Source: a phage. From it: a DNA stretch of 64,000 bases. The position numbers were made by a program, and so were the translations under genes. How positions within the stretch are numbered: the first letter of the stretch is position 1; the number at the start of each line of letters is the position of its first letter. The notes below the pieces were generated by a model. It worked only from the letters and a program-made list of their open reading frames with translations, searched no databases and had not been told where the DNA came from. This document shows, piece after piece, positions 1 through 56,550 of the stretch. Location of the stretch: sequence record OZ346205.1. One strand, 5' to 3'.

Positions 1-45
1 CGAAAGTAATATAACTTTCCAACAAACTATTTAAGGCGGCGAGAT

Positions 46-2804: not shown

Positions 2805-2816
2805 TCAGGAGATAAA

Positions 2817-3857: not shown

Positions 3858-3871
3858 ATCGGAGGACTAGC

Positions 3872-4456: not shown

Positions 4457-4467
4457 GAGGAGGTGTT

Positions 4468-4782: not shown

Positions 4783-4871
4783 ACAAAGGTCAGAACGGAA
4801 AGGACTCTGTTCTTGCATTTTGTTCCCTAAAGTGTTAAAATAGTCCTAAGGAATTTTCTCAGGAGAACGTG

Positions 4872-5915: not shown

Positions 5916-5926
5916 AAAGAGGGTAA

Positions 5927-6193
5927 ATGAAACTAACTCAGTTTTTATGGGGACTGGTTGCGGCATCTGATGACCCTACGAAAGTATCCCAAACTAAGCT
6001 ATGGTCGAACATAGGCATGGCGGTGATGACTGGGGTGTTTATTCATATGGGGTATAATGATACGCTTCCTGAATGGTATGCGTGGATATACGCGCCTTCA
6101 GTAGCTTGCCCCCAGCTTATTAGCAAATTCATCTCGCTCCGGTGGGGTTGCCAGCACCCTGACCACGTTAAAAACGAAGAGCAAAAAGCTTAA
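5927..6193 (+). CDS. hypothetical protein (88 aa)
   Basis: Track ORF with RBS GAGGG upstream; no motif. Confidence 0.4.
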   Translation: MKLTQFLWGLVAASDDPTKVSQTKLWSNIGMAVMTGVFIHMGYNDTLPEWYAWIYAPSVACPQLISKFISLRWGCQHPDHVKNEEQKA

Positions 6194-6202
6194 GGAGAAA
6201 TC

Positions 6203-7948
6203 ATGGCGCAAGACATGACAAGCTTTGAGCAGGCGGTAGATCAAGTAATTGTTGATTCTGAACGTTTGCACCTGATTGTCAACGGTAACGCTGTGGATGA
6301 AGTTGTCGTAGAGGATGGGACCACCATCCCTACGGTACGAAAAGCCATGCTTGACACCCTTTATTTTAAAACGCCACCGATCCCTTGGGCGTATGGTGCA
6401 TCCACAACAGTTTTTAACCAGCTGTACGAGTTTAAAGGGGACACAGGCCCTCAGTGGTGGTACGCTCCCGCAGCATCAAAATCTAACCCGGTTAGAATGC
6501 CAGCAGATCCTTCACAATCTCCAAACTGGAGATTATATACCGATTCTGCAGTAATGGCAAAATACTACGCAAAACTTAACAGTCCGAGGTTCGAAGGTGA
6601 CCCGCGAGTACCTACGCCTCCAATGGACGACAAATCCGAGTCTATAGCAAACACAGAGTTTGTTGTTGACTATGTGGATAGCATATTTGAAGCCATGGAG
6701 GGAATGAAAGTTACTGTAGGGTCTTTGGTGGTAAAAGGTCTTACAGAACTTGCTAACACTATAGTTGGTGGCACACTCACCTTACATGGGCCTGTTAATG
6801 GAGCAGATTCTACTGCACGCTTCAGGAACCTAATCCTCACGGCAAATACTTCTACACTTACTTTTGCGTGGAGTGATCCTAAGCATGCAGACTGGAGAAG
6901 CACAGAGCTGCAACCTCATGAAGTGTCCACCCACAGGGTTATAGCTGACACTATAACTTCTGGGAAACCAGTGGCTAATAATAACGATGTGCATTTTGAT
7001 GGTCTAGGTAATAACTTTTTTGACTACGTGTACATTCGTGGTAATGCCATGAAGGCAGCAACCGAACCGACATTGCAGGTAGATGGAACCACCAGGGTTA
7101 AGAACCTTGAGGTGACAGGCACTGTTACAGGGATAACATACTCTGTCGATGGCACCATGATCTACCCTAGCTATATTGAAAGCACGGGTGATGCATTGAT
7201 AAATGGCGATTTGGAGGTTGGCGGGTCTGTAGTTATTCGAGGTACAGCCTCTATCCAAAATATAGCTCTGAATACTCTAAGAGTCAATGAGCGTGCAACT
7301 TTTGAAGGAGAAGGGCTTACAGCCAATAAAGGTACAATTACCGAGCTGACCACCACCACTTTAACTGCAACAACTGCAAACTCTGAAAACTGCAACATTA
7401 CCAGAAACTTGCAGGTAAATGGAGATGTTAGTTTAAACGCCGCAGGGACTGGCACCACCTACCTTCACAATCTTGAAATATCCGGCACAGTGACCGGATG
7501 GCTGCCAGACTTCTCTAATGTCAACTTTGTCTGTAATGGCATTAACTCCAGTGGTAAGATAACCACCTCTCAAGAAATTGAGGCTGGTAAAACCATCACT
7601 GCCCCTACTTTCCACGCAGGAAAGGTAGATTTTGACTTAGAGGAGGTTGACGCGTCCAGTGGGACATGGACACCTAACGGGCAGGCCAGTATGTATGTTG
7701 TCCACGCTAAAGGGGATTTTACAATAGGTCAGTGGCCTGGGACATCAGCGGAAGATAAACCTTATCCATTCACTGCAGTTATCTATGTCATTCAGGATGC
7801 TGTAGGTCACAACGTGACTTTGCACGATAAGTATGCTATCCTGTCGGCAACACCTGTTATTAACAACAGGGCTAACAGTGTTACCTTGCTGCAATTAACG
7901 TATTGTGGTGTTGGTGATATTGTAGACGTAGTAATTGCACAACGTTAA
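6203..7948 (+). CDS. tail fibre / spike-like structural protein (581 aa)
   Basis: Long Thr/Gly/Asn-rich repetitive beta-type sequence typical of fibre shafts; position in the fibre module. Confidence 0.55.
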   Translation: MAQDMTSFEQAVDQVIVDSERLHLIVNGNAVDEVVVEDGTTIPTVRKAMLDTLYFKTPPIPWAYGASTTVFNQLYEFKGDTGPQWWYAPAASKSNPVRMPADPSQSPNWRLYTDSAVMAKYYAKLNSPRFEGDPRVPTPPMDDKSESIANTEFVVDYVDSIFEAMEGMKVTVGSLVVKGLTELANTIVGGTLTLHGPVNGADSTARFRNLILTANTSTLTFAWSDPKHADWRSTELQPHEVSTHRVIADTITSGKPVANNNDVHFDGLGNNFFDYVYIRGNAMKAATEPTLQVDGTTRVKNLEVTGTVTGITYSVDGTMIYPSYIESTGDALINGDLEVGGSVVIRGTASIQNIALNTLRVNERATFEGEGLTANKGTITELTTTTLTATTANSENCNITRNLQVNGDVSLNAAGTGTTYLHNLEISGTVTGWLPDFSNVNFVCNGINSSGKITTSQEIEAGKTITAPTFHAGKVDFDLEEVDASSGTWTPNGQASMYVVHAKGDFTIGQWPGTSAEDKPYPFTAVIYVIQDAVGHNVTLHDKYAILSATPVINNRANSVTLLQLTYCGVGDIVDVVIAQR

Positions 7949-7996
7949 TATATCTAACCGCTCCTGACGGGGCGGTTTTCTTATCTGGAGAACACA

Positions 7997-10900
7997 ATGC
8001 TTCCAATCCCTTTGCTAAAACTTGGTCGTCATTTCCTCGATAAGAGGGGTGGAATTAAGGAACTTGCTGTTCTGTCATACCCAATAGACAACAGTGATGG
8101 TACAAGCAACACAGTATCCTATGTAAATAGCTTGGCTATACTTTTTGATGATGGTCAGCTTAATATTACGGGCTATAACAAGTTCGGGGAGTGTCGCACT
8201 GGGGATCGTAACCCTATAAACTACCCAAGCGAAACAGCCTGGAATGTTGATCATGTGTGGAGAGCAGACCGTGCGTTTGTGATCCGGACTTTTGATAACC
8301 AGTTTTTCTACATCGGCTGCACTGCAGGTCTTATCGGATCCACTGCGGCAGGCGGTAATGATGTTTGCGTAAACGAGTGGACACCTCTTCCGGAACAGAT
8401 TGTTAAAGGGTTGCACCTTGACACCCACCCAGAGCGCCTTATTGAGGTGATGGGTGGTATTAACAACACTGTCTGGGTTATTGCAGAGGCAGAAGGCACT
8501 GGCATACTTAAACTATATGGATCTGGTAACAACACCTACGGATCTTTGCATGTAGATAAAAATCAGCATGCAACCCCTGTAAAGATTGGTGAGACATCGG
8601 AAAATCCGGAAACAGGTCCTTGGAAAAACCCAAGCATCAACTGCGAGGTGCATGACAACTCTGTTATTTTCGGTGGTCCTAGAGGCTTCTGGATTGCTGG
8701 ATACGACTTTCTAAGAAATAACAGTAGAAACGACCTTGTTTGGCCTCCTGTGCAGATTACTCGTAACGATTTGAGGGGCATTCCTGCAGATGAAGAGTGG
8801 AAAGGGTTTATGTGCGGTCCTAACGGGGCAATAATTGCCACACAGAGGATGCACAAACCAAATGACCAGCAGCTTGTTAACGTATTCTACGGGCAAGACG
8901 TTTGGGGAGATGACACGTGGCGTTCCTTAAATATCACCTACACCCATGAGGTGATAATGGCTCGTGGATACGGCACAAGTGGCATTTTCTTCAATAATGG
9001 CACTAAACAGTATCGTGGATTCTCTCGCAACTTGTGTAATGATATTGGTGCACAATCTGCAAACAATAGCCCTAGGGCTAATTTTATCCACTATCAGGCT
9101 CTTGCTACAGCTAAATATGTTGAGCAACGCCTGCCAGTTAGCTGGACAGAGAGTGTTTATTTCCAAGGCATCCACAGGGAAGGTTTCTTAGGAACCTTTA
9201 CTGTTGTTAATGGCAAACTTTGGTGGTCAGGCATCCCAAGGGGGAGTTTTGCAGGATCTAACAACCTCTTTGGCGGCAGACTTAACAGCCAAGGGTTCAC
9301 AGAGATTCCGGAGAATTGGTATAAAAATGTCCCGGTAGATAGCTGGGGTATCGAAGACATCTTTGATGTCAATGGTGTGAGCAATGTTAGCAACATTTAC
9401 ATCGGAGATACTGTCAAGATGAAATTGAAACCTCAGCCGGAGGGTGCTACGTTCATTATTGACAAGATTGAGTTGGTAAATGCTGCAGGCACTGTTGTTA
9501 CAGATGCAAACTATCAGTTCTCCACTAACTGGAACCATGGTGGTGCTAACGAAGTTGTGGTCACCCAGTATAACCGTAACATCAACAGACGTGGTTTGTA
9601 TTCTATCAAGATCACCTACCATGACAAGCATGGCACTGGAAGAACCTATACGACAAGAACTTTGAACTGGAACACTATAGTTCCTGCGTATCCGTCCAAC
9701 GGCAAGTGGCATACCGTTGGTAGAAACAAGCAGTTCCATGTTAACGATACTGTATACTTTGGGCTGAATGGGACCCAGCCTGCAGTAGAAGGGGATACAT
9801 CGTATATGGTCAGACTCCACAGAATGGATGCTGGATCAGTCACTTATGATGTGACCCAAGAGATCTACGATCAAAGACGTGCCACGTATGACAATATTGT
9901 AAAAACACAAGCCTTGTGGGAGTTCAATCCTAATGGCAAGGGTGGTAAAATGTTGCAGGTTAATGAGCAGAACGGAACGTCGTTGACTGTTCACGAACAC
10001 CCAGACCCTTGGCCTGATCCTGGAAAACCTCGCCCGGGAGCTCGTACACTGAAAATTGTCAGCCATGATGCAGGATATTTCGGAATACGCTGGGAAGCTA
10101 CAGTAAGATATGTCGACGGGACAACAAACAACATAGGGATTACACTTGGCGGCACTAGTGAAGATAACTCGCTGAAAATTGCCTACACGCCCAGAGGTAT
10201 CTCTATTGATAGTATGGATGTTGTTCGCAATGGCTACGGCGATGTGAATGTCAAAGTTACTCTTGGCGAACATCTTGGTGGGGAAAGGATCATCATGTAT
10301 ACCTTTGATCATGATCCACGCACCAATGGAACTTATGCAAATCAGGCATGGAGTTACCTGATAAATGCACCTGAGCCGAATACTAAAGAGTTCTACTATG
10401 GTATGAAGCGAGATGTGTGCAAGAAAACAGGAACACATGACTGGATTGCTATCTGCGTTAAAGATGAGCGCACAGCTTGGGATGAGCCTGTTAACAGATG
10501 GTTCATAGGTATTCCTACCAGAAGTGATAAGTATGTCGCAGAATATATTGTATGCATGGGCGGTACCAACCTAAACATGTGTTGGAACGAAGATGTAAAC
10601 AAATACTCTGATTATGACTATATGAGGGATTACTCTTGTAATTTGTGGTTTAACCAAACTACAGGTTACCCTCCAAGACAGGCGAGAGTAAACCCTGCAA
10701 TCTTCACAGACACGCAGGTTTTCTTGACAAAACAGGCCAACGAGGTTCAGACCTTCAAGAATAAATACGCTCCTAACAAGTGGTTCTACAACTGTTACGG
10801 CGCATTTTTCTGGGGACCTGGTGAGTTACCTGGTGGGGGATCTTGCTTGAATGAGGCAACTTACGCAAGTGACTACATCATGGGGCAGGTCAAGAAGTAT

Positions 10901-13633
10901 AAGATAATCCCCGGTCCTGAGACTTTGGGCAATGCCGTTGACCCTTATATCATCATGACTGCACTGAGATCAAACATGGATGGGACATCCATGTCCATGC
11001 AAATTCCGGTAACAAACGGATACAAACGTGTTGTGATGATCATTAAGTGCGACCTGATAGGTAAACAAGTTCTTGCAGAAAACGGGACATCCACACATCC
11101 TTTTGAGATCGCTCTGCACTATCAGTTTGCTGACTCACCTTTTGCAGGGGATAAGAGAATATCTGATACAGACGCACAGCGTTGTAAGAAAGTATTGTTG
11201 GGTGCAGGTTGGTGGTGGTATGAGTTTGATTTAACAGACAAATTCACCGACACGTCTAAAGTTGTAACAGGACTTCGTCTAGACCTTGGCGAGAACATGC
11301 ACAAAGCTGTTTGTGATGGCACCTATGGTGACCCTACAATATACCTAAAATATGTTTCTTTTGAGCATCCGGAAGATGTTGTCTACGGTCCAAAACTGAG
11401 ATTGTTTGGCAGCTGGATTGCAAAAGATAGGGTAGGCATGGGTAAGAAGGTAAGAGGGCTCTTGGTTGATGCAGGAACAGAAGACATGCTGGTTAATGCA
11501 GTGTGGCCTGAATTACCTGGGACTCAGTGGGACAACTCAGCCAAATCTATAAACTGGTTTAACATTCATAGGGCCATGTGGACCACTAACTGCTACTTGT
11601 GGAGAGAGCTTAACGATCAGGCCTTTGGATTCAGCGATGGTAGAAGGATGGCGATCATTTGCTGGACAACACTGCAAAGATGTTATGACCATGACTATGA
11701 GATTGGGGGCAGGGCATGGAAAAATATCAGGGATAGAATCATAACCAATTTTGCAGACGACAACGGTGGTGGAGCACATAACTTTGGCACAAGCCGACTC
11801 ATCCATTTGAACGGATCCTCAGCCTACAAGAAAGAAGGTTACTCTGGGTCTATGATCGAGTGGGGTCTGGTGAAAGATGCTCGCGTATTGATGGGCCAGC
11901 AACTTGCTGCCGCAATAGGTCCCAGCGCAGTGCAGTCGGTTAAACCAGCGTGGTTCGATATTCCATTGTGGTCACCCGGAACACCGGGAACTGCTGCAAT
12001 CAACCCTACCACTGGGGATCTAGAAATCTCCTGGGAGGACTTGAAGCAGGTCGGTGGTTGGGACAAAACAGGGTACCAGGTTCAGTGGTGGAGAGCTGAT
12101 GGATCTTTAGCTGCTGATGAGTTTGTTAAGGACAATTTCTACACTATGTCCTCTGCAAAAGCACAGCAATTATTTGGTCAGGCAACTCCGTCAACGATCA
12201 CCATGTCTATGTGCTGTAAAGACAACAGGACTGGAGCTTTGGGGCCAAGGGTTGCTAAAGTTTTCTCAGGTATTAAATGGAATCTACCTGTCCAAAGTAT
12301 TTCATGGAAGCAAATAGGTGATAACAAGCTGCTGGTTACCCCTGCCTGTCAGTTCAACGCAACTCTTAACGTTGATCCTGCTGTTGCGGCAAACTCAGCT
12401 AAAGCTTCTGACTTCTCTGTGTCTAACACTGCTATGGCAGATGTGAGGAAGATTGACACGCTGAACGCCAGAATTACCTGTAAAAACACTTATGGCACAT
12501 TCCAGATCATCAACAACTTCACAGATGCTGATTCTAAGGTAGTGAGGACAGCAAGCCAGACTTTGAGTTTAGGAACTCTGGCCTATGCGGCCCTAATCAC
12601 TGAACAGTCGGCAACACTCCAAGGAGGTGGTGTAGGCAAGTCCATTACAACACCTGTGTGGAAGCCAAATGAGTGGGTTGTGTTTGATTTGACTGTGGAC
12701 TTCTCCAGCGATAATAACTGGACATGGGTAAGGAATTGTTTGTCACAGTTGATGGGCGGTCCAAGCTCCGTTAGTGATAGTCACGACTCTACTGACCCGA
12801 GTGTGTTCCAGGTAGGTAAAACTCACCCAGAGACTGGAGAAACGTTGCCTGACAGGAAGTATGCTTTGGTTTGCATCTCTTACGGGAAGGCAGATGTCAC
12901 CTTCTCAGGGACACACACTTATAACGGAACCTACAACTTCTCAAGGAAGTATAGTCTCAAAGCAGGGAACATTATAGACGAGGTTGGTGTGCTGTATAAT
13001 CCGGGCAACGGCATAGGGATTGTTGGTGGTAAACTGCAGATGCAGGAACCTTCTATTACCCCTTCCAACGTATCCGGGATTAGAAAGACTTGGGAAAGTA
13101 GTAATACCAACATTGCAACAGTGGATGCCACCACAGGACTGGTAACATTTAAAGCTACTGGGAATGTCACCATAAAGTTTGTAGTTACAGATGATGCAGG
13201 GCGCAAAACGTCTTCAACATCTTTTACTGTCAAACAGATGGCACCACAGTGGAGAATGTGGATAGGTACAGCAACAAACGGGGCATACCCTAATCCGGCA
13301 GGTACTTCTGGTATGAAGACTTTCTCTACAAGCAAACCGATGGAGTACGGCAGCGGTCCTAAGGTAGGGCAGATGGTGTACTTTGGTGCGTATATTCCTG
13401 AAATTATAGGGCTTCCGAGAAGTCAGCTTCAGTTGCTGTTTGGGGCTGGTGTTGACGATCTTGCCACTTTCGGGTATAGCGACAACATCGAGGCTGCAAG
13501 GAGTTCAGGATGGGTAGGGTTCAGAATGGAGTCTGGAAAGGAAGGCAGGATTCTAGGGACAGCCTCTATAGGTGTTATGTTCCCTGGTGACCAGCAGTAT
13601 CGTCTAGAAGCCTACGCAACCTTTTCTCGTTAA
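7997..13633 (+). CDS. giant virion protein with Ig-like (Big_2) domain (1878 aa)
   Basis: Uninterrupted 5.6 kb ORF; C-terminal segment ...NIATVDATTGLVTFKATGNVTIKFVVTDDAGRK... matches the Big_2 pattern. Confidence 0.65.
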   Translation: MLPIPLLKLGRHFLDKRGGIKELAVLSYPIDNSDGTSNTVSYVNSLAILFDDGQLNITGYNKFGECRTGDRNPINYPSETAWNVDHVWRADRAFVIRTFDNQFFYIGCTAGLIGSTAAGGNDVCVNEWTPLPEQIVKGLHLDTHPERLIEVMGGINNTVWVIAEAEGTGILKLYGSGNNTYGSLHVDKNQHATPVKIGETSENPETGPWKNPSINCEVHDNSVIFGGPRGFWIAGYDFLRNNSRNDLVWPPVQITRNDLRGIPADEEWKGFMCGPNGAIIATQRMHKPNDQQLVNVFYGQDVWGDDTWRSLNITYTHEVIMARGYGTSGIFFNNGTKQYRGFSRNLCNDIGAQSANNSPRANFIHYQALATAKYVEQRLPVSWTESVYFQGIHREGFLGTFTVVNGKLWWSGIPRGSFAGSNNLFGGRLNSQGFTEIPENWYKNVPVDSWGIEDIFDVNGVSNVSNIYIGDTVKMKLKPQPEGATFIIDKIELVNAAGTVVTDANYQFSTNWNHGGANEVVVTQYNRNINRRGLYSIKITYHDKHGTGRTYTTRTLNWNTIVPAYPSNGKWHTVGRNKQFHVNDTVYFGLNGTQPAVEGDTSYMVRLHRMDAGSVTYDVTQEIYDQRRATYDNIVKTQALWEFNPNGKGGKMLQVNEQNGTSLTVHEHPDPWPDPGKPRPGARTLKIVSHDAGYFGIRWEATVRYVDGTTNNIGITLGGTSEDNSLKIAYTPRGISIDSMDVVRNGYGDVNVKVTLGEHLGGERIIMYTFDHDPRTNGTYANQAWSYLINAPEPNTKEFYYGMKRDVCKKTGTHDWIAICVKDERTAWDEPVNRWFIGIPTRSDKYVAEYIVCMGGTNLNMCWNEDVNKYSDYDYMRDYSCNLWFNQTTGYPPRQARVNPAIFTDTQVFLTKQANEVQTFKNKYAPNKWFYNCYGAFFWGPGELPGGGSCLNEATYASDYIMGQVKKYKIIPGPETLGNAVDPYIIMTALRSNMDGTSMSMQIPVTNGYKRVVMIIKCDLIGKQVLAENGTSTHPFEIALHYQFADSPFAGDKRISDTDAQRCKKVLLGAGWWWYEFDLTDKFTDTSKVVTGLRLDLGENMHKAVCDGTYGDPTIYLKYVSFEHPEDVVYGPKLRLFGSWIAKDRVGMGKKVRGLLVDAGTEDMLVNAVWPELPGTQWDNSAKSINWFNIHRAMWTTNCYLWRELNDQAFGFSDGRRMAIICWTTLQRCYDHDYEIGGRAWKNIRDRIITNFADDNGGGAHNFGTSRLIHLNGSSAYKKEGYSGSMIEWGLVKDARVLMGQQLAAAIGPSAVQSVKPAWFDIPLWSPGTPGTAAINPTTGDLEISWEDLKQVGGWDKTGYQVQWWRADGSLAADEFVKDNFYTMSSAKAQQLFGQATPSTITMSMCCKDNRTGALGPRVAKVFSGIKWNLPVQSISWKQIGDNKLLVTPACQFNATLNVDPAVAANSAKASDFSVSNTAMADVRKIDTLNARITCKNTYGTFQIINNFTDADSKVVRTASQTLSLGTLAYAALITEQSATLQGGGVGKSITTPVWKPNEWVVFDLTVDFSSDNNWTWVRNCLSQLMGGPSSVSDSHDSTDPSVFQVGKTHPETGETLPDRKYALVCISYGKADVTFSGTHTYNGTYNFSRKYSLKAGNIIDEVGVLYNPGNGIGIVGGKLQMQEPSITPSNVSGIRKTWESSNTNIATVDATTGLVTFKATGNVTIKFVVTDDAGRKTSSTSFTVKQMAPQWRMWIGTATNGAYPNPAGTSGMKTFSTSKPMEYGSGPKVGQMVYFGAYIPEIIGLPRSQLQLLFGAGVDDLATFGYSDNIEAARSSGWVGFRMESGKEGRILGTASIGVMFPGDQQYRLEAYATFSR

Positions 13634-36056: not shown

Positions 36057-38480
36057 ATGAGTATGTGGTCTTTCGATTTTGAGTCATCCGGTTTGCTGGA
36101 AGACCCAGATCTTTATTATCACTGCGGTCTGTTTAAAGAGCTGAATAAGAACCGTTTTATGCTGTTCCTTCCTCTAAATGACCGCACACACTACTCCGAG
36201 GAGGATATAGAAAAGGCTAAGAACTTCATTCTGTCAAAGAAAACTCTTTATAAAGATTTTGAAGTTCGCATAGCAGATTTTTCGGAGTTGGAAGGTTGGC
36301 TTACAGGCAATTCTGACTGGTCACCAACAGCTTTGAACTGCCATAACTGCTACAGTTATGACTTTATGCTAATGGAAAGATTATCCGGTATTCATTTTGA
36401 TATGTTCCGTGATCCTAAATGCATGGGGACTATCAACGACCACCAGGTTAACCTGTTTGATACGTTGGCTATGAGCCGAATCTTGTGGCCTGATCGCCCT
36501 TTACCAAAAGGTTGTCCGGACGCTGTATTCAACCCGGTTACTAAGAAAATGCAACCTGTTGGTCCTCACGGCCTTATGGCATGGGGCTACGCCCTTGGTA
36601 ACCAGAAAGTTCAAATTGATGACTGGCGCGATCTTCCGTTGTGGAAGTATGTGGATCGTGTATTCGAGGACGTTATCATCCAGGAGCTGCTCTGGAAAGA
36701 GCTGGTAGCGGAATCAAAAGGTGTATTCTACGGCAAATCTGACATGCAGAACTTTATGTACGATCCAGCCAAAGAGAAGCCGAAAGGGTTCAAGAAGATC
36801 ACCTGGAAGAACGCATTACGTCGAGGCATGCTGCAGCACTTCCTGATGGAGCTGCAGGCCCGTCAGGGTGTATACTTCGACATAGATGGAGCTATTGCTT
36901 TACGTGACCGTTGCGATGCGTGGATGAAAGAAATCGCTGATCGTGTTGAACCACAACTACCTTTAAAAGAGCTGTCAATGTCTCAGCGGCCCAAGTTCCC
37001 TGAAAAGCCGTTTAACCAAGACGGGACAATCTCTAATAATGGTTGGAAATGGTTAAAAGATAAGCTTGGCTATCCTGTAGACATGAGTGCTTTAGAGTTC
37101 AAAGCCCCGCCTAAGCGAGCATTTACCTCTACAGGAGATGTCAGCAAGATGGGGATAAAATGGTGTGAAGAGATGGGCTGCAAAGACCCCGATAAGATGG
37201 CTGATTTCTTGAGAGGCTATATTAAGGGCACCTCCACACCACAACCCTTACCTAAAGAGCTGATGGATCAGGCAATAAGTGATCTGCAGCAGAAGCGAAT
37301 GCCTGACTGCAAGATACCTATGAAAATCAGCAATCAGGACGACATCAAGCGATACCTAATCAGTGCTGGTTGGCTCCCAACAATGTGGAGAACTAAAGAT
37401 GTAACTAAAGACAGCAAGAAGAAAGCTTTACCTGATGCAGATGTTGATGCACGAGTATATGCATATATGGACGAGCTTTTGGAGTCAGAGTATTGTGACC
37501 TAATTATCAACTTCTGGAACAAAACTGATGCTAAGTTCCAGACAACCGTGCACAAGTTCCGAAGCTTTCCTAACTCCGAAAGGATTAAAAAGGAAGTATT
37601 CGGGAAAATACGTAGAAAAGCCAGGGCACTTATTACTTCTCCGCAACTGAAAGATACGTTTGGACACCTATGCCCAAATCTTGAAAAATTGAACGGAGAG
37701 ATGGCTAAAGATATCGTCTTGTGGTTATCATTGCGAAACCGCAGATCGGTCCTTGATCCAATCAAGGAGGATAAGGTTGATACTGGTCTTCTTAATCACC
37801 CACGTTTGAAGATTGACCATAAGCTTCCTGCTAAAAGCTCTGGATTAACAAACACTTCCAGACAGAAACACAGTATTTGTGCAAACATGCCTAAACCATC
37901 TCCTAAAGTGGTTATGGGTAAAGAGATGCGTAGTCTGTGGGGTGTTCCTCCGGGATACTTTGAGATCGGTATTGACGGGTCCAACTTAGAGCAGCTTATC
38001 GGGGCTTGGGGTGCCTTTGAGTTCGACAACGGCCTGTATTATGATGTTGTAAGTAACGGAGACGCACACCAAAACAATGCTGAGGCATATACAAAAGTGG
38101 CAGGCAGAGAGGTGTCCCGTAACGACGGTAAACCTATCACGTATGGGGTTATGTACGGGGCACAAAAAGATAAAGTTGCAGATATGTTGGACATCTCCCC
38201 AGAGTTGGGACAAAGGGTAATCGATGCACTCTGGGATGCCAACCCAGGTCTTAAGGGGCGCAAAGAGGATCTGGAGAAATTCTGGGAAGCAACAGGTAAG
38301 AAGTTTATCTACTCTTTTGATGGTCATGCTATCTGGACCCGATCTAAACACTCTTTACTTAATGCATACCAACAAAATGGCGGTGCATCGTTGTGTGACT
38401 TAGTTGGAATACTCATGCACCACCAGATGGTGAAGCGTGGGTGGTACGATGAAGGTGTTCGTCGTATTATTTATTACCAT
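36057..38480 (+). CDS. family A DNA polymerase, exon 1 (ends inside motif C at ...YYH)
   Basis: Exo motif FDFESSG; motif A IDGSNLEQL; motif B KPITYGVMYGAQ; frame terminates 2 codons after the His of the expected HDE motif. Confidence 0.8.
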
Positions 38481-38756
38481 AAATAACATTGTGGCTTCAT
38501 AGAGTAATCTATGTCGAATAACCTCTTTAACTGCGGGAAGCCTAAACCTTATGGCAAGGTAATCCGCAACGAAGCGCTCAAAAGAGCGAACGCTCAGAGG
38601 CCATTCCGAAAGGAAGTAGACCAGCAAGTGCGGTCGAAATGGGAGGATTCCTGTGGTTGCTTATCATAGGAATATGAGATGGTCCGATCCTACGTGAAAA
38701 CGTATGGCTATGCACGTAATGGTGCGGGGTAGCTTAACGACCTACCTGAACTATTG
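38481..38756 (+). ncRNA. putative group I-like self-splicing intron (no endonuclease ORF)
   Basis: 276-nt ORF-free insert between ...YYH and DEYQ...; exon ends in U with GUGG 11 nt downstream able to pair CCAU (P1-like); insert ends in G. Confidence 0.55.
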
Positions 38757-41923: not shown

Positions 41924-42292
41924 ATGGAACAAATGAACGATCAAGAGTCGGTTGCGATGAACGAGCAAGAACAACCTCAAGAATTTTTCTTAGGGTTAAG
42001 TAAAGATCAAGTGTCTCTTTTGCTAGTGCTTTCTTCTTTCATGGGAAGACTTCAGGAGCTCACACAACAACCGGAGGCTGAACAATTATTTCAGGCTCTG
42101 CGTGAAGAAGAAAAATATCGTCGTTTGGACTATGCCTTAGGTTGGGTAGCTCAACAACGAGATATGCTGATGGCCCTCTCTGGGACCACAAGTTTTGCAA
42201 TGGGCCTGTTGGCTCAAGTTCAGGACAAATTAATTCAAGCAGGGTTTGCACACACGGCAAACACTAACGAAGAACAAGGAGACAAAGAATGA
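41924..42292 (+). CDS. hypothetical protein (122 aa)
   Basis: Track ORF. Confidence 0.5.
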   Translation: MEQMNDQESVAMNEQEQPQEFFLGLSKDQVSLLLVLSSFMGRLQELTQQPEAEQLFQALREEEKYRRLDYALGWVAQQRDMLMALSGTTSFAMGLLAQVQDKLIQAGFAHTANTNEEQGDKE

Positions 42293-43503
42293 GCGTTATT
42301 CAACAATTCGCTAACCCGATGAATCCGCGTGAAACTGTTTTACTGGCTCACGGCATGATTAAACGCGTCAGCATCAAGCCTATCAAAGGTGCTGATCCTA
42401 CAACAGGTATTAAAACCACTGTGTGGCAAGGTAAGAAAATTGAATCCAGCCACACCATCTCTTTACTGATTTCTGAACTGGATTCCTCTGATAACCTACT
42501 TCAAGGTGGTGAAGAAGTTTGGATCAGTATGGGCGATAAGCTGCTTAAACCGGGTCATCAAGACTCTGTCTCTGTTAAAATTGATGACAAGTGGGAAACC
42601 GTAACGCCAGGATGGATCGTAAATATTCCTTTGAAGGCAAACGAGCATAACGGTAAGACCTATTACAAAGGCTCACTGGCTAAGATGGTTAAGCTGGGTG
42701 TAGGAGAGGCTCCAGCAGCGACTCAGCAGCAAAAACAGCAACAAGGTGTACAATCACAAGGCCAGAAGCAGAATGCCAATCAGGACGTTTTACGCATCTA
42801 TGGCGATGTGACTCAGATTGTTGGCAACGTGGTTACTGTCAATGACCACAAGATTGGCGAAGGTGCTATGGTTGTCACCGATGAGCAGCTTAAAGATCTG
42901 GTGGTAGGTGGTCGTGTTGCAGCCATTGTTGACAAAGACACCGGAAACATTATCAGTGGTTTCAAAGCCTACCCCCCTAAGGCAGAGAACGGCACTCAAG
43001 GCTCCGGTGGCAAGCGTAAATCCTCTTACGACCCTATCGGTGTGGAAACGGGGCATAGCATCAATGCGTTGCAGATCATCCTGGATCGCGGGTTTAAGGT
43101 AGACGACCCACTGGGCGTGGCTAAAACACTGCACGTAGTCACCATTGAGCTTAAGAAAGAGTATGCTCAGGCCACCAACCGAACTGAAGATGAAGTAGGT
43201 GCCAGTGTCGGTAATGCGGTGTTGAACGCTTGTCGCCGTATTGACAAGAAAACGAAAGTTGATGATTTTGCAGCGGCAATTACTGCAGAAGCAAAAGATG
43301 TCTTGACTAATCTGGCTGAGCCGTTGTACGATTGGATCAAGAACGGTGCTGGGTCAACTGACCATCAAGAACCTCAGGCTACCAAACAGGAAGCAGCTCC
43401 ACAGCAAAACACTGTAGACGCTCCTCCTGTAAATGATGAGGAAGATGACCCAATGGATCAGAATCCAGCACAGTACTCCTTTGATGATGACATCCCTTTT
43501 TAA
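42289..43503 (+). CDS. ssb: single-stranded DNA-binding protein-like (404 aa)
   Basis: Q-rich flexible linker and canonical SSB C-terminal tip ...FDDDIPF; placed in the replication module. Confidence 0.6.
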   Translation: MSVIQQFANPMNPRETVLLAHGMIKRVSIKPIKGADPTTGIKTTVWQGKKIESSHTISLLISELDSSDNLLQGGEEVWISMGDKLLKPGHQDSVSVKIDDKWETVTPGWIVNIPLKANEHNGKTYYKGSLAKMVKLGVGEAPAATQQQKQQQGVQSQGQKQNANQDVLRIYGDVTQIVGNVVTVNDHKIGEGAMVVTDEQLKDLVVGGRVAAIVDKDTGNIISGFKAYPPKAENGTQGSGGKRKSSYDPIGVETGHSINALQIILDRGFKVDDPLGVAKTLHVVTIELKKEYAQATNRTEDEVGASVGNAVLNACRRIDKKTKVDDFAAAITAEAKDVLTNLAEPLYDWIKNGAGSTDHQEPQATKQEAAPQQNTVDAPPVNDEEDDPMDQNPAQYSFDDDIPF

Positions 43504-45926: not shown

Positions 45927-46262
45927 ATGGTAACATTAGAAAGACGTAAAGCTATCGCCGCCACACTGGCAGACATCTTTTGGGAGTGCAATTTAAAAGA
46001 TACCCGATATTGTGGCGCATCTGTAGATGCATTATTCCCACGGCCCACTATTGTTGCAATGGGAAACCTGTCAAACGTGGTGTATGGAGCATGGGACAAA
46101 GAAGGTGGATTTTATATCTGGCAACCTGACTACGGGACCTGGAAAGAGGTAAGGGGTGCGGATGACTTTGGGCCTGCAGTTGCCAAAACGATGGATGGCT
46201 GGAAAATCTATGTCGGTAACGACATGAAGCTGAAAGGCGAGATTGTTTACTGGTTACCTTAA
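45927..46262 (+). CDS. hypothetical protein (111 aa)
   Basis: Track ORF. Confidence 0.5.
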   Translation: MVTLERRKAIAATLADIFWECNLKDTRYCGASVDALFPRPTIVAMGNLSNVVYGAWDKEGGFYIWQPDYGTWKEVRGADDFGPAVAKTMDGWKIYVGNDMKLKGEIVYWLP

Positions 46263-46529: not shown

Positions 46530-46719
46530 GCTTAAATCTGCATGGAACATCGCTGTGGGGGACGAGATCCGCATCCCAGGTGGAAAGACCATTATGAAGA
46601 TATCTCGTATCGAGTACGAAGGTGATCGTGTATTTCATATCTTTGCAGAAGATGGTCGAGAAATTTATATACAGGCAGGCTCTCACATCTATATTCGTAA
46701 GAAAGGGGACGACAAATGA
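46522..46719 (+). CDS. hypothetical protein (65 aa)
   Basis: ATG after AAGGAGG; overlaps upstream stop. Confidence 0.45.
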   Translation: MFKLKSAWNIAVGDEIRIPGGKTIMKISRIEYEGDRVFHIFAEDGREIYIQAGSHIYIRKKGDDK

Positions 46720-47045
46720 CAGAGATCATCATTTCAACTGCAGGGTATGTGTTCCTGACAATCATTGCACTGACCATTCTGGTGGTGGTATATGGAATTG
46801 TTATTCTCCCTATTCTTGAGACAATTAGTTTGTGTCGGTGTTGGAGAAAGGCTTACGGTCCACAGCCGTGGAAGGACTGGCCCCACCTGGTGCACATAGC
46901 GTTCTCTTATGCTTATGATCACGCCAGCAGTGCATGCATAACCGGGTATCACGCCCACAACTGGAGCTGGGAAGGGTTGAGGAAATGGAATGTTACAAAG
47001 ACCATACCTCTGCGCATGTACAAACCTAAAAACAAAGACAGCTGA
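46716..47045 (+). CDS. hypothetical membrane protein (109 aa)
   Basis: Track ORF; hydrophobic N-terminal helix. Confidence 0.5.
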   Translation: MTEIIISTAGYVFLTIIALTILVVVYGIVILPILETISLCRCWRKAYGPQPWKDWPHLVHIAFSYAYDHASSACITGYHAHNWSWEGLRKWNVTKTIPLRMYKPKNKDS

Positions 47046-47359
47046 TACTTGAAAATCCCTGGCATATCAAGTGTAAGGAGGATTTCTAAAATGGATTTCC
47101 TCCTTTTGATATTTCACCGGGCCAGATATTTTAAAATTCTTAGAAAATCAGAAAATGGATCGAAAACTAAAATGGATTTTTCAAGACAGGCACGATAAGA
47201 TGTGCTGCTCATTCTATCGTTCGCACCGTACTTTAAGTCACTATTCCAGATTTTTCCGCACATACTCTCACCCTTCTACCAGAACTTTCCCAGCTTACCT
47301 CTGACCTTTTATAACAATAAGTCCATTATTATCAGAAAGTTTCGGCACATCTCTTTCGG

Positions 47360-47506
47360 TACTCGATCTGTTTTTCATTTCAAAGACCTGATTTTCTGAA
47401 AATTTTTCTCGATAAATTTCTTAGTACTCGATCTGTTTTTCATTTCAAAGACCTGATTTTCTGAAAATTTTTCTCGATAAATTTCTTAGTACTCGATCTG
47501 TTTTTC
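47360..47506. repeat. 65-bp tandem direct repeat, two exact copies plus a degenerate third
   Basis: Unit TACTCGATCTGTTTTTCATTTCAAAGACCTGATTTTCTGAAAATTTTTCTCGATAAATTTCTTAG at 47360-47424 and 47425-47489; third copy diverges after 17 nt. Confidence 0.85.
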
Positions 47507-47660
47507 GTTTTCTGAATCGGATTTTCTGGAAATCGTTCCAGCTCTCGACCTGAAATTTTTGGGGACGAAATCGATTTTTCGTTTTCAGAAATGGATTTTT
47601 AAAATTTCTATATGGGAATATTTTATGGGATACTGTTTTATAGGAAATTGTTACGGAGGG

Positions 47661-47678
47661 TAATTAGCATGCTAATTA
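47661..47678. repeat. perfect 18-bp palindrome (operator-like)
   Basis: TAATTAGCATGCTAATTA is its own reverse complement. Confidence 0.8.
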
Positions 47679-48127
47679 AATTTATTAAATGCGAGGAGTT
47701 CTCATTTAGAATTTTGAATGATAATCATTCTCGTTTGCAGAATAACGGGCAGGCCCGGTGATTGTCTCCCGGCCCCTACTGCCCCGGCTTGTTATTATAG
47801 TATCACACAGGACAAAGAAAGCAAGGATTTTTTGCATAAATTTTTAAATGATAATGATAACCGTTCTCATTTTATGCAGCGCCCATCCCCGGTGGTTGTC
47901 TCCCCCGTCACCGGTGCCTGCCGTCCTTTCGATAGGTATATCGTGCCACCTGGCGGGGCCGCTGTCAACACTTTTCAAAAAATTTTTCTAACCTGATGCG
48001 CTAACCGCTGCAACCTGGCGGGGTCAGCCTGGCAGGACCTAACTGACCGGGTAGGAGAGAATGAAGGCTTGTAAACCTGGTGGGCCTATGCTACAGGATA
48101 GGTAACAATTGAAGAGGAGGTACAAAA

Positions 48128-48295
48128 ATGAAAGGTAATATGATCCCCCTAGAAAATGTAGCTATTAATGACGCTGAGGCTATCGCCCTGGTTGAAAAGG
48201 CTATGGCGGGAGCGTTGGAACATAAAGAAGAGTACGAAAAATGGTGGTTAACCTGGCGGGGGCGGCAGGTGGATTCTATCATAAAAATAATTTAA
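48128..48295 (+). CDS. small hypothetical protein (55 aa)
   Basis: ORF below the track size cut-off; strong RBS GAAGAGGAGG 7 nt upstream. Confidence 0.35.
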   Translation: MKGNMIPLENVAINDAEAIALVEKAMAGALEHKEEYEKWWLTWRGRQVDSIIKII

Positions 48296-48303
48296 AATAG
48301 TCG

Positions 48304-48331
48304 TTGACAACAAGGTTAATCATGGTATTAT
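48304..48331 (+). promoter_or_regulatory. sigma70-like promoter (cassette)
   Basis: TTGACA, 16-nt spacer, TATTAT. Confidence 0.45.
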
Positions 48332-55135: not shown

Positions 55136-55190
55136 ACCTGGCGGGGCCGAAAAGGCCCCCAATTATGAAAATAAAGAGAGGCAAATCATC

Positions 55191-56067: not shown

Positions 56068-56550
56068 CTAACAGAAGAGAATAAACACCATGAAACAGAA
56101 ATTAATCGATGCAGTGATCTTGGTTATTGCCCTGGGTATTGGCCTGATTGCAACCATGTCTAATATGATCTTGTCTTCCAACGGTATCGGGTGAGGTTGG
56201 CAAATGATCACTAACAAAACAGGCAAAACGGAATTTTTACGCAACTTACAGATCGGCAAGCCTGAGATCTGGTACTGCACTAAAACACCGCGTGACGAAA
56301 TGGCTTCAAAAGGGGTCATGAACGAATAAACGGCATCATCATCTGCTTCAGGGAATGCTCCCAAAGACTTCATGTCTGAGCCCTTGACAAATACAAGGTT
56401 TTGATCAAAAGCTTCTTGGGGATCAATCCGATACATATTTCGTAGAATATCGCTTACCTCCTCATCAAGAGGTGAGTATGCTGTGCACGTTTTTCCGATC
56501 AAGCTTTGAGAATCAGGGTATCCACCTGAAGTTTTAAAATAAACAATCAT
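56068..56550 (-). CDS. hypothetical protein; 3' extent uncertain
   Basis: RBS GAGGTGA before the ATG at 56550; N-terminal about 75 residues look protein-like, the remainder is Cys/Pro-rich and overlaps plus-strand small ORFs. Confidence 0.35.
   Translation of the reverse strand: MIVYFKTSGGYPDSQSLIGKTCTAYSPLDEEVSDILRNMYRIDPQEAFDQNLVFVKGSDMKSLGAFPEADDDAVYSFMTPFEAISSRGVLVQYQISGLPICKLRKNSVLPVLLVIICQPHPIPLEDKIILDMVAIRPIPRAITKITASINFCFMVFILFC

Follow-up and report, generated by a model that had tools for sequence, protein, structure and literature searches.

What function is served by the only long ORF-poor stretch in a phage sequence is the question raised by positions 47046 to 48127, hereafter the hub, of OZ346205.1; the whole stretch of 64 kb that was analysed is called the window. 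The window comes from an rV5-like Vequintavirus, with about 91% identity to rV5. A sequence-only reading of the hub had listed repeats, a palindrome and paired GC-rich hairpins, and had suggested an origin of replication, a packaging site or terminal-repeat boundary, or a pair of small structured RNAs. Judged by comparison with its homologues, the hub is a strongly conserved non-coding control region of the rV5-like E. coli phages and their relatives. This 1 kb region is unmentioned in the literature searched, and nothing on the locus was found in publications concerning Fur boxes in lytic phages, the origin or repeats of rV5, or Vequintavirinae transcriptomes. The rV5 genome map marks one 'non-coding' box, not placeable relative to the hub, and the rV5 origin of replication was not located (PMC3606486).

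Setting and conservation of the hub

The hub had been placed between the replication module and an array of small early genes, which is correct: the genes for a PIF1 helicase, a DnaB-like primase-helicase and PolA lie directly upstream, and the last ORF before the hub spans 46716-47045. The right boundary is marked by the first small ORF of the array (48128-48295, plus strand, 55 aa), which is preceded by the ribosome-binding site (RBS) GAGGAGG. This ORF is annotated in relatives, yet frame-breaking indels were found in several of them; it lacks a sigma-70-type promoter of its own, the next one being located at 48304-48331. Both the GC and the AT skews of the hub are reversed relative to the plus-strand genes on its two flanks, so that the stretch is not compositionally neutral. 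No tRNA or tmRNA was found within the 64-kb window.

The hub was also said to be poor in ORFs, and indeed no protein-conserved ORF was found within 47046-48127. The longest one, 47718-47996 (rV5 gp193), was rejected as protein-coding: it meets a stop at codon 8 in Mydovirus, is only 25 aa long in GAP31 and Phapecoctavirus, and its ATG is missing in other registers. The minus-strand ORF 48091-48282, considered as a homologue of GAP31_044, showed no similarity to it. In every relative examined, the hub is either an unannotated gap or carries tiny hypothetical ORFs only. GenBank records place spurious small ORFs in the region.

As a whole, conservation of the hub spans at least seven genera, comprising Vequintavirinae and Phapecoctavirus. 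Identity within Vequintavirus amounts to 92-98% in the core blocks, vs. 86-91% in the two ORF segments on the flanks and 73% in the spacers inside the hub. Across genera, only 47681-47772 can be aligned. The right end of the hub is a variable plus-strand leader (47976-48113) with a mean identity of 73.6% and with deletions in Gotham, typing phage 14 and phita32. The motif ACCTGGCGGGG occurs in this leader at 48013 and again at 47948, inside the spacer of the promoter candidate P(-)A described below; the window holds four exact copies vs. 0.46 expected, an expectation that allows up to one mismatch. Additional Vequintavirus sequences obtained from a scan of viral contigs amounted to two contigs only, and viral-contig scans with short patterns returned mostly chance matches.

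The left half and its repeat array

Just past the ORF 46716-47045, a terminator-like hairpin on the plus strand (47075-47116; AAGGAGGA ... TCCTCCTT, then TTTTGATATTT) folds at -15.8 kcal/mol in RNAfold, and its loop contains the first copy of AAATGGAT. The hairpin opens a conserved motif block (47075-47185), in which 100 of the 111 columns are invariant in nine Vequintavirus sequences, with a mean pairwise identity of 94.4%, and which carries GATATTT at 47108 and 47125. The four reported copies of AAATGGAT are present, at 47089, 47153, 47170 and 47589, the earlier coordinates being off by 0-2 nt. The 10-mer AAATGGATTT is found three times in the window, each time within the hub, vs. 0.47 expected per 64 kb. 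As for other genera, the GATATTT and AAATGG(T/A)TTT motifs are found at the same place. The block is followed by a fast-evolving spacer (47186-47358; mean identity 73%, 68 of 173 columns invariant), where rV5 gp194 is annotated; the start of gp194 is inside the conserved motif block, and the gene is not conserved.

Concerning the 65-bp tandem repeat, two exact copies and a degenerate third (68%) were indeed recovered, while its extent had to be changed from 47360-47506 to 47359-47553; a fourth degenerate unit of the same type lies at about 47544-47610. The first copy (47359-47423) is 100% identical to 47424-47488, and a single copy is present in all eight of the other Vequintavirus sequences. 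Among the matches listed, 30 out of 30 align in two pieces. On this sequence comparison, the exact duplication is private to the phage analysed here. The ancestral array consists of three degenerate AT-rich units (47424-47610), each with the inverted motifs CTCGATC...TTTTTC...GATTTTC/GAAAAT, and the fourth AAATGGAT (47589) is its last feature. Positions 47424-47660 have a mean identity of 93.6% (199/237 columns invariant), and the GC content is 0.318 over 47359-47660. Three units of 65-90 nt with the same motifs are found in Seunavirus, Mydovirus, Henunavirus and Certrevirus. At the right end of the AT-rich region, the perfect 18-bp palindrome TAATTAGCATGCTAATTA was confirmed at 47661-47678; it is perfect in four of the nine aligned Vequintavirus sequences and imperfect in the other five.

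Fur-like boxes, candidate promoters and GC blocks in the right half

The sequence-only reading had overlooked two elements, the strand on which the promoters lie and the Fur boxes. To the left of both GC blocks lie AT-rich sequences that resemble the Fur box, with 15/19 and 16/19 matches to the consensus. Fur box 1 (AATGATAATCATTCTCGTT, 47717-47735) has the 7-1-7 motif TGATAAT-C-ATTCTCG, matches GATAATGATAATCATTATC at 15 of 19 positions in the register from 47714 and the 7-1-7 motif at 13 of 15 positions at 47719, and shares an identical run of 16 nt with the fhuA Fur box. With a matrix built on E. coli sites, it scores 25.7 bits and is the top match in the window, the maximum reached in 40 Markov simulations being 21.1 bits; as the E. 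coli sites of this matrix were picked with the phage matrix described below, the test is partly circular. Fur box 2 (47847-47871) has two overlapping registers, AATGATAATGATAACCGTT and AATGATAACCGTTCTCATT (23.9 and 17.4 bits), and matches the Fur consensus at 16 of 19 positions at 47850; it agrees with the fecI Fur box at 20 of 22 positions and is flanked by the inverted repeat GCATAAAT / ATTTTATGC. A weak distal Fur-like box, AATGCGAGGAGTTCTCATT (47688-47706), matches the phage palindrome at 14 of 19 positions and scores 12.2 bits with the E. coli-site matrix; its position is that of a strong box in GAP31, 4MG and Mydovirus. Within 64 kb, the only plus-strand sites with at least 15/19 matches to GATAATGATAATCATTATC are those at 47714 and 47850, and a further 15/19 Fur-type site is found on the minus strand at 58902, for a shuffle mean of 0.57 on both strands.

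The comparison was also made in the reverse direction, with a symmetric matrix derived from 11 phage boxes alone and scanned over 250 kb of MG1655 (E. coli K-12). The sites of ryhB, fecI, fhuA and fecA were ranked first, the entC, cirA, entS and fes promoters were found as well in these 250 kb, and nine of the 11 top matches fell in Fur-regulated promoter intervals, which make up 0.9% of the DNA scanned. At the same landmark, Vequintavirus, Seunavirus, Mydovirus, Henunavirus, Certrevirus and Phapecoctavirus carry between one and five boxes, a box at the position of Fur box 1 being present in every genus examined, and 78 of the 85 columns of the block 47661-47745 are invariant in the genus. Fur-like boxes are also found within the terminal repeats of Gotham and KPP-1. 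On these matches, the boxes of the hub are predicted, with good confidence, to be bound by Fur.

Several sigma-70-type promoter candidates surround the boxes. P(-)A (47940-47968, minus strand) combines a -35 TTGACA (47968-47963), a 17-nt spacer and a -10 CACGAT (47945-47940), the latter being CACAAT or CAAAAT in other Vequintavirus (10/12), with a predicted start at about 47933. P(-)B (47794-47824, minus strand) has a -35 TTGCTT (47824-47819), a 19-nt spacer and a -10 TATAAT (47799-47794), with a predicted start at about 47787; 55 of the 59 columns of its region are invariant in the genus. A minus-strand promoter at the P(-)A landmark (+241 to +265 from the core) and a minus-strand sigma-70 match at the P(-)B landmark (+97 to +100 from the core) were each found in 26 of 26 distinct sequences, with P(-)B equivalents of diverged spacers such as TTGACC-17-GATAAT, TTGCCA-17-TATATT and TTGATC-16-TATTAT; plus-strand matches are only sporadic across the same 26. 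The two predicted starts fall on the right edges of the GC blocks. A promoter scan tool likewise gave minus-strand sigma-70 sites at equivalent positions in four genera, and none of the hub candidates in the phage's own sequence is above the scan threshold. Taken together, these leftward promoters are probably functional.

A weak leftward candidate, P(-)C (47647-47678 when the palindrome it overlaps is included), has a -35 TTAGCA (47675-47670), a 17-nt spacer and a -10 AACAAT (47652-47647). It scores 8/12 in the window, 9/12 in phage Aya (TTAGCA-17-TACAAT) and 9-10/12 in other genera, for instance as TTGACA-18-GAAAAT or TTGACT-17-GATACT; the nearest box is 16-18 bp away, whether one or two boxes are present. 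On the plus strand, the candidate P1(+) (47714-47743; -35 TTGAAT 47714-47719, 18-nt spacer, -10 CAGAAT 47738-47743, predicted start about 47750) has its spacer filled by Fur box 1 and scores 8/12, below the scan threshold. It is kept in most genera, the -10 being CTGAAT in Mydovirus; since this -10 lacks the key A while two strong boxes are kept, repression of P1(+) cannot be what the boxes do in all genera. No plus-strand promoter goes with Fur box 2, and the conserved leftward promoters are not overlapped by any Fur box. Two other promoter types were considered. A T4 MotA-box middle promoter at TTTGCWGAAT was rejected, as no downstream -10 is present in the GC block, and an extended -10 plus-strand promoter at TGTTATTAT, possible and scoring 9/12 in Mydovirus and Certrevirus, was set aside as less consistent than the minus-strand promoter that shares the same AT block.

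GC block 1 (47746-47787, with CCGGTGATTGTCTCC), delimited by the starts predicted for P1(+) and P(-)B, and GC block 2 (47879-47926, with CCGGTGGTTGTCTCC and the 6-bp stem CCGGTG/CACCGG; 44 of 48 columns invariant) correspond to the two hairpins described earlier. In distant genera, GC block 1 is the only part of the hub that aligns in blastn, at 71-88% identity. The two imperfect direct repeats reported there exist as related units, the shared pieces being limited to 33 nt at 73% identity and CCCGGTG(A/G)TTGTCTCCC at 94%, spaced 134-136 nt apart; CCGGTGRTTGTCTCC occurs in the window only at these two units. The stem-loops themselves were not borne out. Their stability is no better than that of dinucleotide shuffles (z from -1.7 to +1.3: on the plus strand -0.36 for GC block 1, +0.25 and -1.2; on the minus strand -1.7 for GC block 1, and -1.0), TTGTCTCC is not consistently in a loop, and in GC block 1 the GG/CC and AC/GT polymorphisms segregate independently, without compensation. 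Stem changes of GC block 2 in phita32 and navn leave G-U pairs on the minus strand but produce A-C mismatches on the plus strand. RNAalifold, applied to the related element of other genera, gave no convincing consensus on either strand, with covariation terms positive on both. The G-U-compatible changes on the minus strand and helix swaps in L014, L019 and L006 are only weak hints of structure. A plus-strand terminator-like hairpin closes the second element in other genera and one U-G pair in L014 favours the plus strand, so a functional transcript is possible on either strand.

Short transcripts from the hub are plausible, and the conserved promoters that would produce them point leftward, opposite to what had been assumed. 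The pair of small structured RNAs, as proposed, found no support: there is no Rfam match, no excess folding energy and no compensation. A broader version, with two trans-acting, Fur-tied and RyhB-like RNAs whose 5' seed would be the GC block of each, and which would act on host or phage mRNAs either as a leftward RNA with GGGAGACAAYCACC or as a rightward RNA with the anti-Shine-Dalgarno UUGUCUCC, is unlikely. It would account for a primary sequence kept without a conserved ORF, for the restriction of CCGGTGRTTGTCTCC to the two GC units, for minus-strand promoters immediately upstream with Fur boxes adjacent, and for GGAGACAA, which is the RBS of ORF 42289-43503. Against it, Rfam returned nothing in the hub at gathering thresholds (chance-level hits only, E 0.34 or worse) and nothing relevant on seven related loci; scans of the window and of relatives found no canonical or intrinsic terminator and no U-tail after the leftward starts; and no homologue of the GC blocks was found in 5,426 E. 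coli genomes. Pairing of the phage RNA with RyhB is no better than with shuffles, and the search for anti-Shine-Dalgarno targets gave a single GGAGACAA at an RBS (42278), which is the chance frequency. A G-quadruplex in the leftward RNA was also considered and rejected, the four G-runs of Vequintavirus not being conserved in other genera.

A possible Fur-gated control region, its alternatives and its relatives

We tentatively propose that the hub is a cluster of promoters gated by Fur and directed into an AT-rich array of repeats, a reading that falls a little short of probable; that the switch works in the manner set out here is somewhat less assured still. What was observed, by computation throughout, is the sequence conservation, the likeness to Fur boxes and the constant promoter positions; Fur binding, promoter activity, the sense of the regulation and its consequences are inferred from these. 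The right half (47640-47975) would hold one to three Fur operators packed among sigma-70-type promoters. P(-)A and P(-)B would oppose all surrounding genes, the first 40 or so transcribed bases being the GC blocks, while the weaker, rightward P1(+), with Fur box 1 in its spacer, would face P(-)B across GC block 1, and P(-)C would be a further leftward candidate just left of the boxes. The left half (47075-47640), with its short repeats, would be the target of leftward transcription. In the presence of iron, Fur-Fe(II) on the boxes would shut P1(+) and may also block leftward polymerases about 60 nt past their start; when iron is lacking, the boxes would be unoccupied, and convergent transcription across the hub would change in balance and extent. 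The reversed skews, as in minus-strand gene regions, are consistent with this arrangement, as is the tolerance of GC block 2 stem substitutions as G-U pairs on the minus strand only. Several points speak against it: the 19-nt spacer of P(-)B, the CACGAT of P(-)A and the mere 8/12 of P1(+), the lack of a canonical terminator after the leftward starts, and the place of the boxes, either about 60 nt beyond a start site or some 60 nt upstream of P(-)C, which is non-classical for a repressor. A phage-encoded protein could, moreover, recognise the same palindrome.

That such a protein, and not Fur, uses the AATGAKAATCATTCTCATT palindromes, as an early repressor, a replication initiator or an end-binding protein, is in our view quite improbable; the likeness to Fur boxes would then be incidental, or a means of competing with Fur. 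The consensus half-site is TGAGAAT, not TGATAAT, in several genera, and clusters of the motif at the physical ends of the Gotham and KPP-1 genomes suggest a phage-specific use beyond promoter control. Yet the boxes reach the scores of the ryhB, fhuA and fecI sites and the phage-box matrix recovers the Fur regulon, so that binding by host Fur is expected regardless; no DNA-binding-domain match was found among ten ORFs run against Pfam. In the Fur titration assay, Fur boxes present in multicopy derepress the regulon, and several strong boxes per genome, at two loci, could likewise make the replicating DNA a decoy that titrates Fur and derepresses iron uptake, the extra iron feeding the iron-dependent nucleotide metabolism of the phage. 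Relatives are reported to encode ribonucleotide reductases (PMC7344957). A decoy is nevertheless very unlikely: it would have no need of a fixed box-promoter geometry, such as the constant distance of the nearest box to P(-)C, and no quantitative argument indicates that the number of boxes suffices vs. cellular Fur.

The origin reading, compatible with a role of Fur and not exclusive of it, takes the AT-rich array (47075-47640) as an initiator-binding and unwinding region which the leftward promoters would activate or prime by transcription. It is rather doubtful. It can draw on three to four degenerate units of 65-90 nt and several short motif families at a position conserved across genera, on the low GC content (0.32 over 47359-47660) with two to three promoters firing into the array, and on the adjoining helicase, primase-helicase and polymerase genes. 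Against it stand the absence of DnaA boxes from the hub (at most one mismatch), GATC sites that are not enriched (four in 1.08 kb vs. 4.9 per kb in the window) and a skew that changes only locally and otherwise tracks gene orientation, the same conclusion as for rV5 (PMC3606486); DnaA boxes, GATC clusters and a skew switch are not obligatory for phage origins. At 65-90 nt, the units are also much longer than the 17-22 bp of classical iterons, and more degenerate; no initiator gene was identified next to the hub, and the spacer 47186-47358 evolves fast. A combined scenario, in which Vequintavirinae and Phapecoctavirus would have recruited Fur as a structural or regulatory factor at the hub and the terminal repeats, with Fur gating leftward transcription into an array that is the origin and iron status licensing replication or early development, appears distinctly unlikely. 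As for a terminal-repeat boundary or pac site at which packaging would start, it is extremely unlikely, being contradicted by homology with vB_EcoM_Gotham, the one Vequintavirus with reported termini, whose terminal repeats are 459 bp long (PMC7471380). In the Gotham record, the terminal repeat is the feature 1-459 and the hub homologue lies at 10768-12070, about 10.8 kb away, the window being collinear with Gotham 3436-13000; the 514-bp terminal repeat of KPP-1 lacks the hub core as well. The region is repeat-rich, a few database records begin in the region or close to it, phiWec189 inside the hub, and an 'attL' repeat feature is placed there in the record of a Salmonella phage, but such record starts are consistent with presumed assembly breaks at repeats.

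The Fur-gated reading can be set beside known systems. Like the Fur-regulated promoters of Enterobacteria (fhuA, fecI, ryhB; GATAATGATAATCATTATC or the 7-1-7 TGATAATnATTATCA), the hub has operators matching at 15-16/19, with multiple adjacent or overlapping boxes, one of which lies in a sigma-70-like spacer. It differs from these host promoters in that the boxes are in a virulent phage with no iron-related gene downstream, that the phage half-sites are TGAGAAT in several genera, and that no box overlaps its best-conserved promoters, which are directed away from the boxes or through them. RyhB and other Fur-repressed small RNAs also have a Fur box adjoining a short non-coding transcription unit, a predicted one in the hub, and of the E. 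coli sites, the ryhB box AATAATAATCATTCTCATT fits the phage matrix best; the hub, however, has no sequence or structure similarity to RyhB (no match in Rfam, where RyhB is RF00057), no Hfq-type terminator and no stable fold, and the string TTGTCTCGCGAT shared by the PVP-SE1-type element is not collinear with the ryhB promoter. On temperate phages, a Fur box is known from the stx1 promoter. Another lies upstream of the sitABCD operon of lambdoid prophages (PMC6969025). In these cases, as would be the case for the hub, a phage genome is wired into the host Fur regulon, but the boxes control a cargo gene benefiting the lysogen, whereas here they occur in strictly lytic phages, in the hub and in terminal repeats, and subfamily-wide. 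The same study dealt with rV5-like phages, and the only Fur box it reported is that preceding the sit operon of the lambda phages (PMC6969025).

Tandem promoters directed into AT-rich repeats next to replication genes are also a feature of the lambda origin (pR, oop), of the T7 primary origin, which consists of tandem promoters and an AT-rich region, and of the T4 oriF/oriG R-loop origins; the predicted short leftward transcripts, antisense to flanking genes, recall oop in particular. Compared with these transcription-activated origins, the hub has no identified initiator or iteron-initiator pair, and its units are 65-90 nt long; none of the lambda, T7 and T4 origins is known to carry Fur boxes. 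Face-to-face promoters tens of bp apart, with an operator on one of them, are found in 186 (pR/pL) and P2 (Pe/Pc), similar to the convergent predicted starts at about 47750 and about 47787 that bracket GC block 1. Those switches decide lysogeny via phage repressors, whereas the hub would involve a virulent phage and a metal sensor of the host, with P1(+) being weak and not universal.

The putative Fur boxes and leftward promoters at this locus are new results, and together they suggest that virulent phages may read the iron status of their host. rV5-like phages are candidates for use in phage therapy, and iron is limiting in the gut and at sites of infection. These phages are among the coliphages of the infant gut with the broadest host range (PMC6969025). 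If the Fur operators are functional, early transcription, and perhaps replication, would depend on host iron status, a dependence that could affect therapeutic efficacy in vivo, and the rV5-like phages would be a rare case of strictly lytic phages wired into a host metal regulon.

Position and conservation of the hub

Given its flanking genes, the non-coding hub (47046-48127) is rightly placed by the sequence-only reading at the junction of the replication module and a cassette array. Upstream are found a PIF1-like helicase, a DNA methylase, a DnaB-like primase-helicase and a family A polymerase with a group I intron; downstream, small ORFs form an array, and several have a consensus-like sigma-70 promoter in front of them, starting with the one at 48304-48331. 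The intron (38471-38706, plus strand; Rfam RF00028, 64.7 bits) is located at the end of the DNA polymerase ORF 36057-38486.

Of the 122 phage records that matched region 46900-48300, 113 did so across 80% or more of its length. Among the matches listed, all were Vequintavirus (rV5-like), with 81-93% identity, and records titled 'Campylobacter phage' were similar to the region on par with Vequintavirus records. Within this genus, mean pairwise identity reaches 92-98% in the core blocks 47075-47185 and 47424-47975, compared with 86-91% in two flanking ORF segments and about 73% in the internal spacer (47186-47358) and the leader (47976-48113). Since the core exceeds the two ORF segments, purifying selection on it is suggested. 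As for distant genera, only 47681-47772 could be aligned by sensitive blastn (71-88% identity).

In every relative examined, namely rV5, WalterGehring, phiWec186 (Phapecoctavirus), GAP31 and 4MG (Seunavirus), Mydo and KpS11 (Mydovirus), Hena1 (Henunavirus), and KaOmega, PBES 02 and P7_Pc (Certrevirus), the hub is an unannotated gap or contains merely tiny hypothetical ORFs. GenBank records of relatives place two to eight differing small 'hypothetical proteins' over it (e.g. rV5 gp192-194, bas51_0102-0105), which are likely annotation artefacts, as they are mutually inconsistent and start within conserved DNA motifs. A protein reading of the longest hub ORF (47718-47996, rV5 gp193) was rejected: a stop interrupts the frame at codon 8 in Mydovirus, and GAP31 and Phapecoctavirus retain 25 codons of it. 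No Rfam family was present at the hub, nor any tRNA or tmRNA, and no E. coli homologue was found.

Concerning the first ORF to the right (48128-48295, plus strand), its homologues in close relatives carry frame-breaking indels, often at homopolymers (rV5 +1, typing phage 14 -1, locus L010 -2, phita32 -2), reflecting either sequencing errors or an ORF without protein-level selection. The motif ACCTGGCGGGG has four exact copies, all on the plus strand (47948, 48013, 48251 and 55136), against 0.46 matches expected with up to one mismatch. Three of these fall in a 300-bp stretch at the hub's right edge; the one at 48251 coincides with a frameshift-prone G-run ending ORF 48128-48295, and that at 55136 continues into a hairpin, GGGGCC-GAAAA-GGCCCC.

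Fur-like boxes at the conserved landmark

The AT-rich sequences to the left of GC block 1 (47746-47787) and GC block 2 (47879-47926) are TTGAATGATAATCATTCTC (47714) and GATAATGATAACCGTTCTC (47850), respectively. They match the consensus GATAATGATAATCATTATC of Fur, the host iron sensor, at 15/19 and 16/19 positions, and are the only plus-strand sites of at least 15/19 in the 64 kb; one more 15/19 site is present on the minus strand (58902), and shuffled sequences gave a mean of 0.57 such sites on both strands. The corresponding boxes are Fur box 1 (47717-47735) and Fur box 2 (47847-47871). Across genera, the palindrome reads AATGA(G/T)AATCATTCTCATT, i.e. a 7-1-7 Fur motif in which the fourth position of either half is G or T.

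A symmetric matrix built from 11 phage boxes alone was run against 250 kb of DNA from E. coli K-12, picked to contain known Fur-regulated promoters. The four best matches were in the upstream regions of ryhB, fecI, fhuA and fecA, and nine of the top 11 fell in Fur-regulated promoter intervals, which make up 0.9% of the scanned DNA. Fur box 1 and the fhuA box have an identical run of 16 nt in common, and Fur box 2 agrees with the fecI box at 20/22 positions. With a matrix of E. coli sites, the two boxes scored 25.7 and 23.9 bits vs. 21.1 for the best of 40 Markov-simulated windows, a test that is partly circular because the phage matrix served to pick its sites; the consensus count has no such dependence.

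The number of boxes at the landmark differs between genera: one in Hena1 and PVP-SE1-type phages, two in GAP31, 4MG and Mydovirus, two plus a weak third in Vequintavirus, four in Certrevirus, and five in Phapecoctavirus at a looser cutoff (four with the E. coli-site matrix). A 12-mer, TTGTCTCGCGAT, is common to the PVP-SE1-type GC block (locus L009, core +35 to +50) and the -10-to-start region of ryhB, whose promoter (E. coli locus L027, ~46010-46030) reads TATTATTGTCTC|GCGATCAGG around it. As the 12-mer and the Fur box are not collinear, this is probably a coincidence.

Predicted promoters, GC blocks and repeats

Inside the hub, no sigma-70 match exceeded the scan threshold, and in GAP31, Mydo, Hena1 and KaOmega the same scan placed promoters on the minus strand at the corresponding sites. 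A landmark-based scan of 26 distinct sequences, representing at least seven genera, gave minus-strand matches in all 26 at +97 to +100 and at +241 to +265 relative to the conserved core, with differing -35/-10 hexamers and diverged spacers; plus-strand matches were sporadic. Two leftward promoters are thereby predicted here: P(-)B (-35 TTGCTT, 47824 to 47819; 19-nt spacer; -10 TATAAT, 47799 to 47794) and P(-)A (-35 TTGACA, 47968 to 47963; 17-nt spacer; -10 CACGAT, 47945 to 47940, replaced by CACAAT or CAAAAT in other Vequintavirus). A third leftward candidate, P(-)C, has its -35 TTAGCA within the perfect palindrome, a 17-nt spacer, -10 AACAAT (8/12 here, 9-10/12 elsewhere) and a start expected near 47640, and stands 16-18 bp from the nearest Fur box in genera with one or two boxes alike. 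On the plus strand, the candidate P1(+) combines -35 TTGAAT and -10 CAGAAT (CTGAAT in Mydovirus) around an 18-nt spacer occupied by Fur box 1; its predicted start (~47750) is convergent with P(-)B over the 42-nt GC block 1.

The GC-rich units had been read as stem-loops, a reading that folding did not confirm: their stability is no greater than that of shuffled sequence (z -1.7 to +0.25). Since the predicted leftward starts (~47787 and ~47933) coincide with where GC blocks 1 and 2 end on the right, these 'hairpins' would rather be the stretches transcribed first in two leftward units. Leftward transcription agrees with two independent hints: the GC and AT skews of the hub are reversed, as in minus-strand gene regions of the window, and substitutions of phita32 and navn in the block 2 stem CCGGTG/CACCGG would pair as G-U on the minus strand and mismatch as A-C on the plus strand. 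Pointing the other way, a plus-strand terminator-like hairpin closes the second element in other genera, and one variant (locus L014) has a U-G pair on the plus strand only. RNAalifold gave no convincing consensus on either strand, and both strands may well be transcribed.

The repeats, motif copies, palindrome and paired units described earlier all exist. AAATGGAT occurs at 47089, 47153, 47170 and 47589, and CCGGTG(A/G)TTGTCTCC, common to the two related units, has no other occurrence in the 64 kb. The 65-bp tandem repeat (47359-47553; two copies are exact, the third is at 68%) is present, although its exact duplication is private to this phage in a comparison that included eight other Vequintavirus sequences; ancestrally, the array consists of three degenerate units. 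Likewise, the palindrome (47661-47678) is perfect here, but of the nine sequences aligned five have an imperfect one.

GC block 1 shows an uncompensated GG or CC dinucleotide polymorphism at 47751-47752 (GGGCAGGCCCGG vs. GGGCACCCCCGG), recurring within Vequintavirus as well as between and within other genera (e.g. PBES 02 vs. KaOmega), which may reflect recombination or recurrent switching. On the plus strand the blocks contain UUGUCUCC, complementary to the RBS GGAGACAAAGAATG (42278-42291, plus strand) of ORF 42289-43503; this single occurrence equals chance frequency. In place of GC block 2, non-Vequintavirus genera have another conserved element, ACCGGCGATCCACCTTCC ... GCCCCGCCTTTTCGCCGTGGGGTGGCG, with TCTTTACAA(A/T)TCTTTACAAA in front, about 140-230 nt to the right of the conserved core (loci L003-L021, e.g. 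L004 1680-1760). It has no Rfam match, undergoes whole-helix swaps in L006, L014 and L019 (CCCC/GGGG to CCAA/TTGG; hairpin to ATAGCCG/CGGCTAT), and is present in two copies in P7_Pc.

Genome ends and reading of the hub

A terminal-repeat or pac site had also been proposed. The 459-bp terminal repeats reported for Gotham (PMC7471380), also a feature in its record (MT682716), sit ~10.8 kb from its hub copy, and this contradicts the proposal; Gotham is collinear with the window over its positions 3436-13000. Fur-like boxes are found in the Gotham terminal repeat (1-459) at 10 (AATGGGAATACTTCTCATT), 126 (AATGAGAATACCTATCATT) and 144, and in KPP-1 (L024, 2817-3950) the terminal repeat and its immediate surroundings have boxes of 24-26 bits, so that the physical genome end of both phages carries a second cluster of Fur-like boxes. 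Gotham 1-3436, which bears the terminal repeat, is unmatched in the window, and the 56.3 kb region (56068-56302) is ~9 kb nearer to the hub than in WalterGehring (83840-101116); from these two observations, the genome-end segment is missing or replaced in the OZ346205.1 sequence.

The best-supported reading of the hub is a cluster of predicted, mostly leftward promoters with putative Fur operators, firing into an AT-rich repeat array; Fur binding, promoter activity and the direction of regulation are what we infer from these sequence features. In iron-replete cells, the boxes would be occupied by Fur-Fe(II), and bound Fur would repress P1(+) and possibly block leftward polymerases ~60 nt past their starts (box centres at +61 and +71). 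Iron limitation would then alter the balance and reach of convergent transcription.

Compatible with this Fur model, and the most attractive target of the predicted transcription, is a transcription-activated origin at the repeat array, even though DnaA boxes, GATC clusters and a skew signal are absent from it (for skew, see also PMC3606486). Rival explanations are that the GC blocks yield trans-acting small RNAs, that a phage protein uses the Fur-like palindrome, or that replicating phage DNA titrates Fur.

Both Fur operators and promoters that are convergent or close to an origin are already known kinds of element. In the literature searched, no description of Fur boxes in rV5-like or other lytic phages was found, the sole match being the Fur box of the sit operon in temperate lambdoid phages, from a study that also covered rV5-like phages. 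A conserved Fur-box hub in a strictly lytic phage lineage thus appears to be new to that literature and, supported entirely by computation, is a specific idea that would surprise phage biologists.
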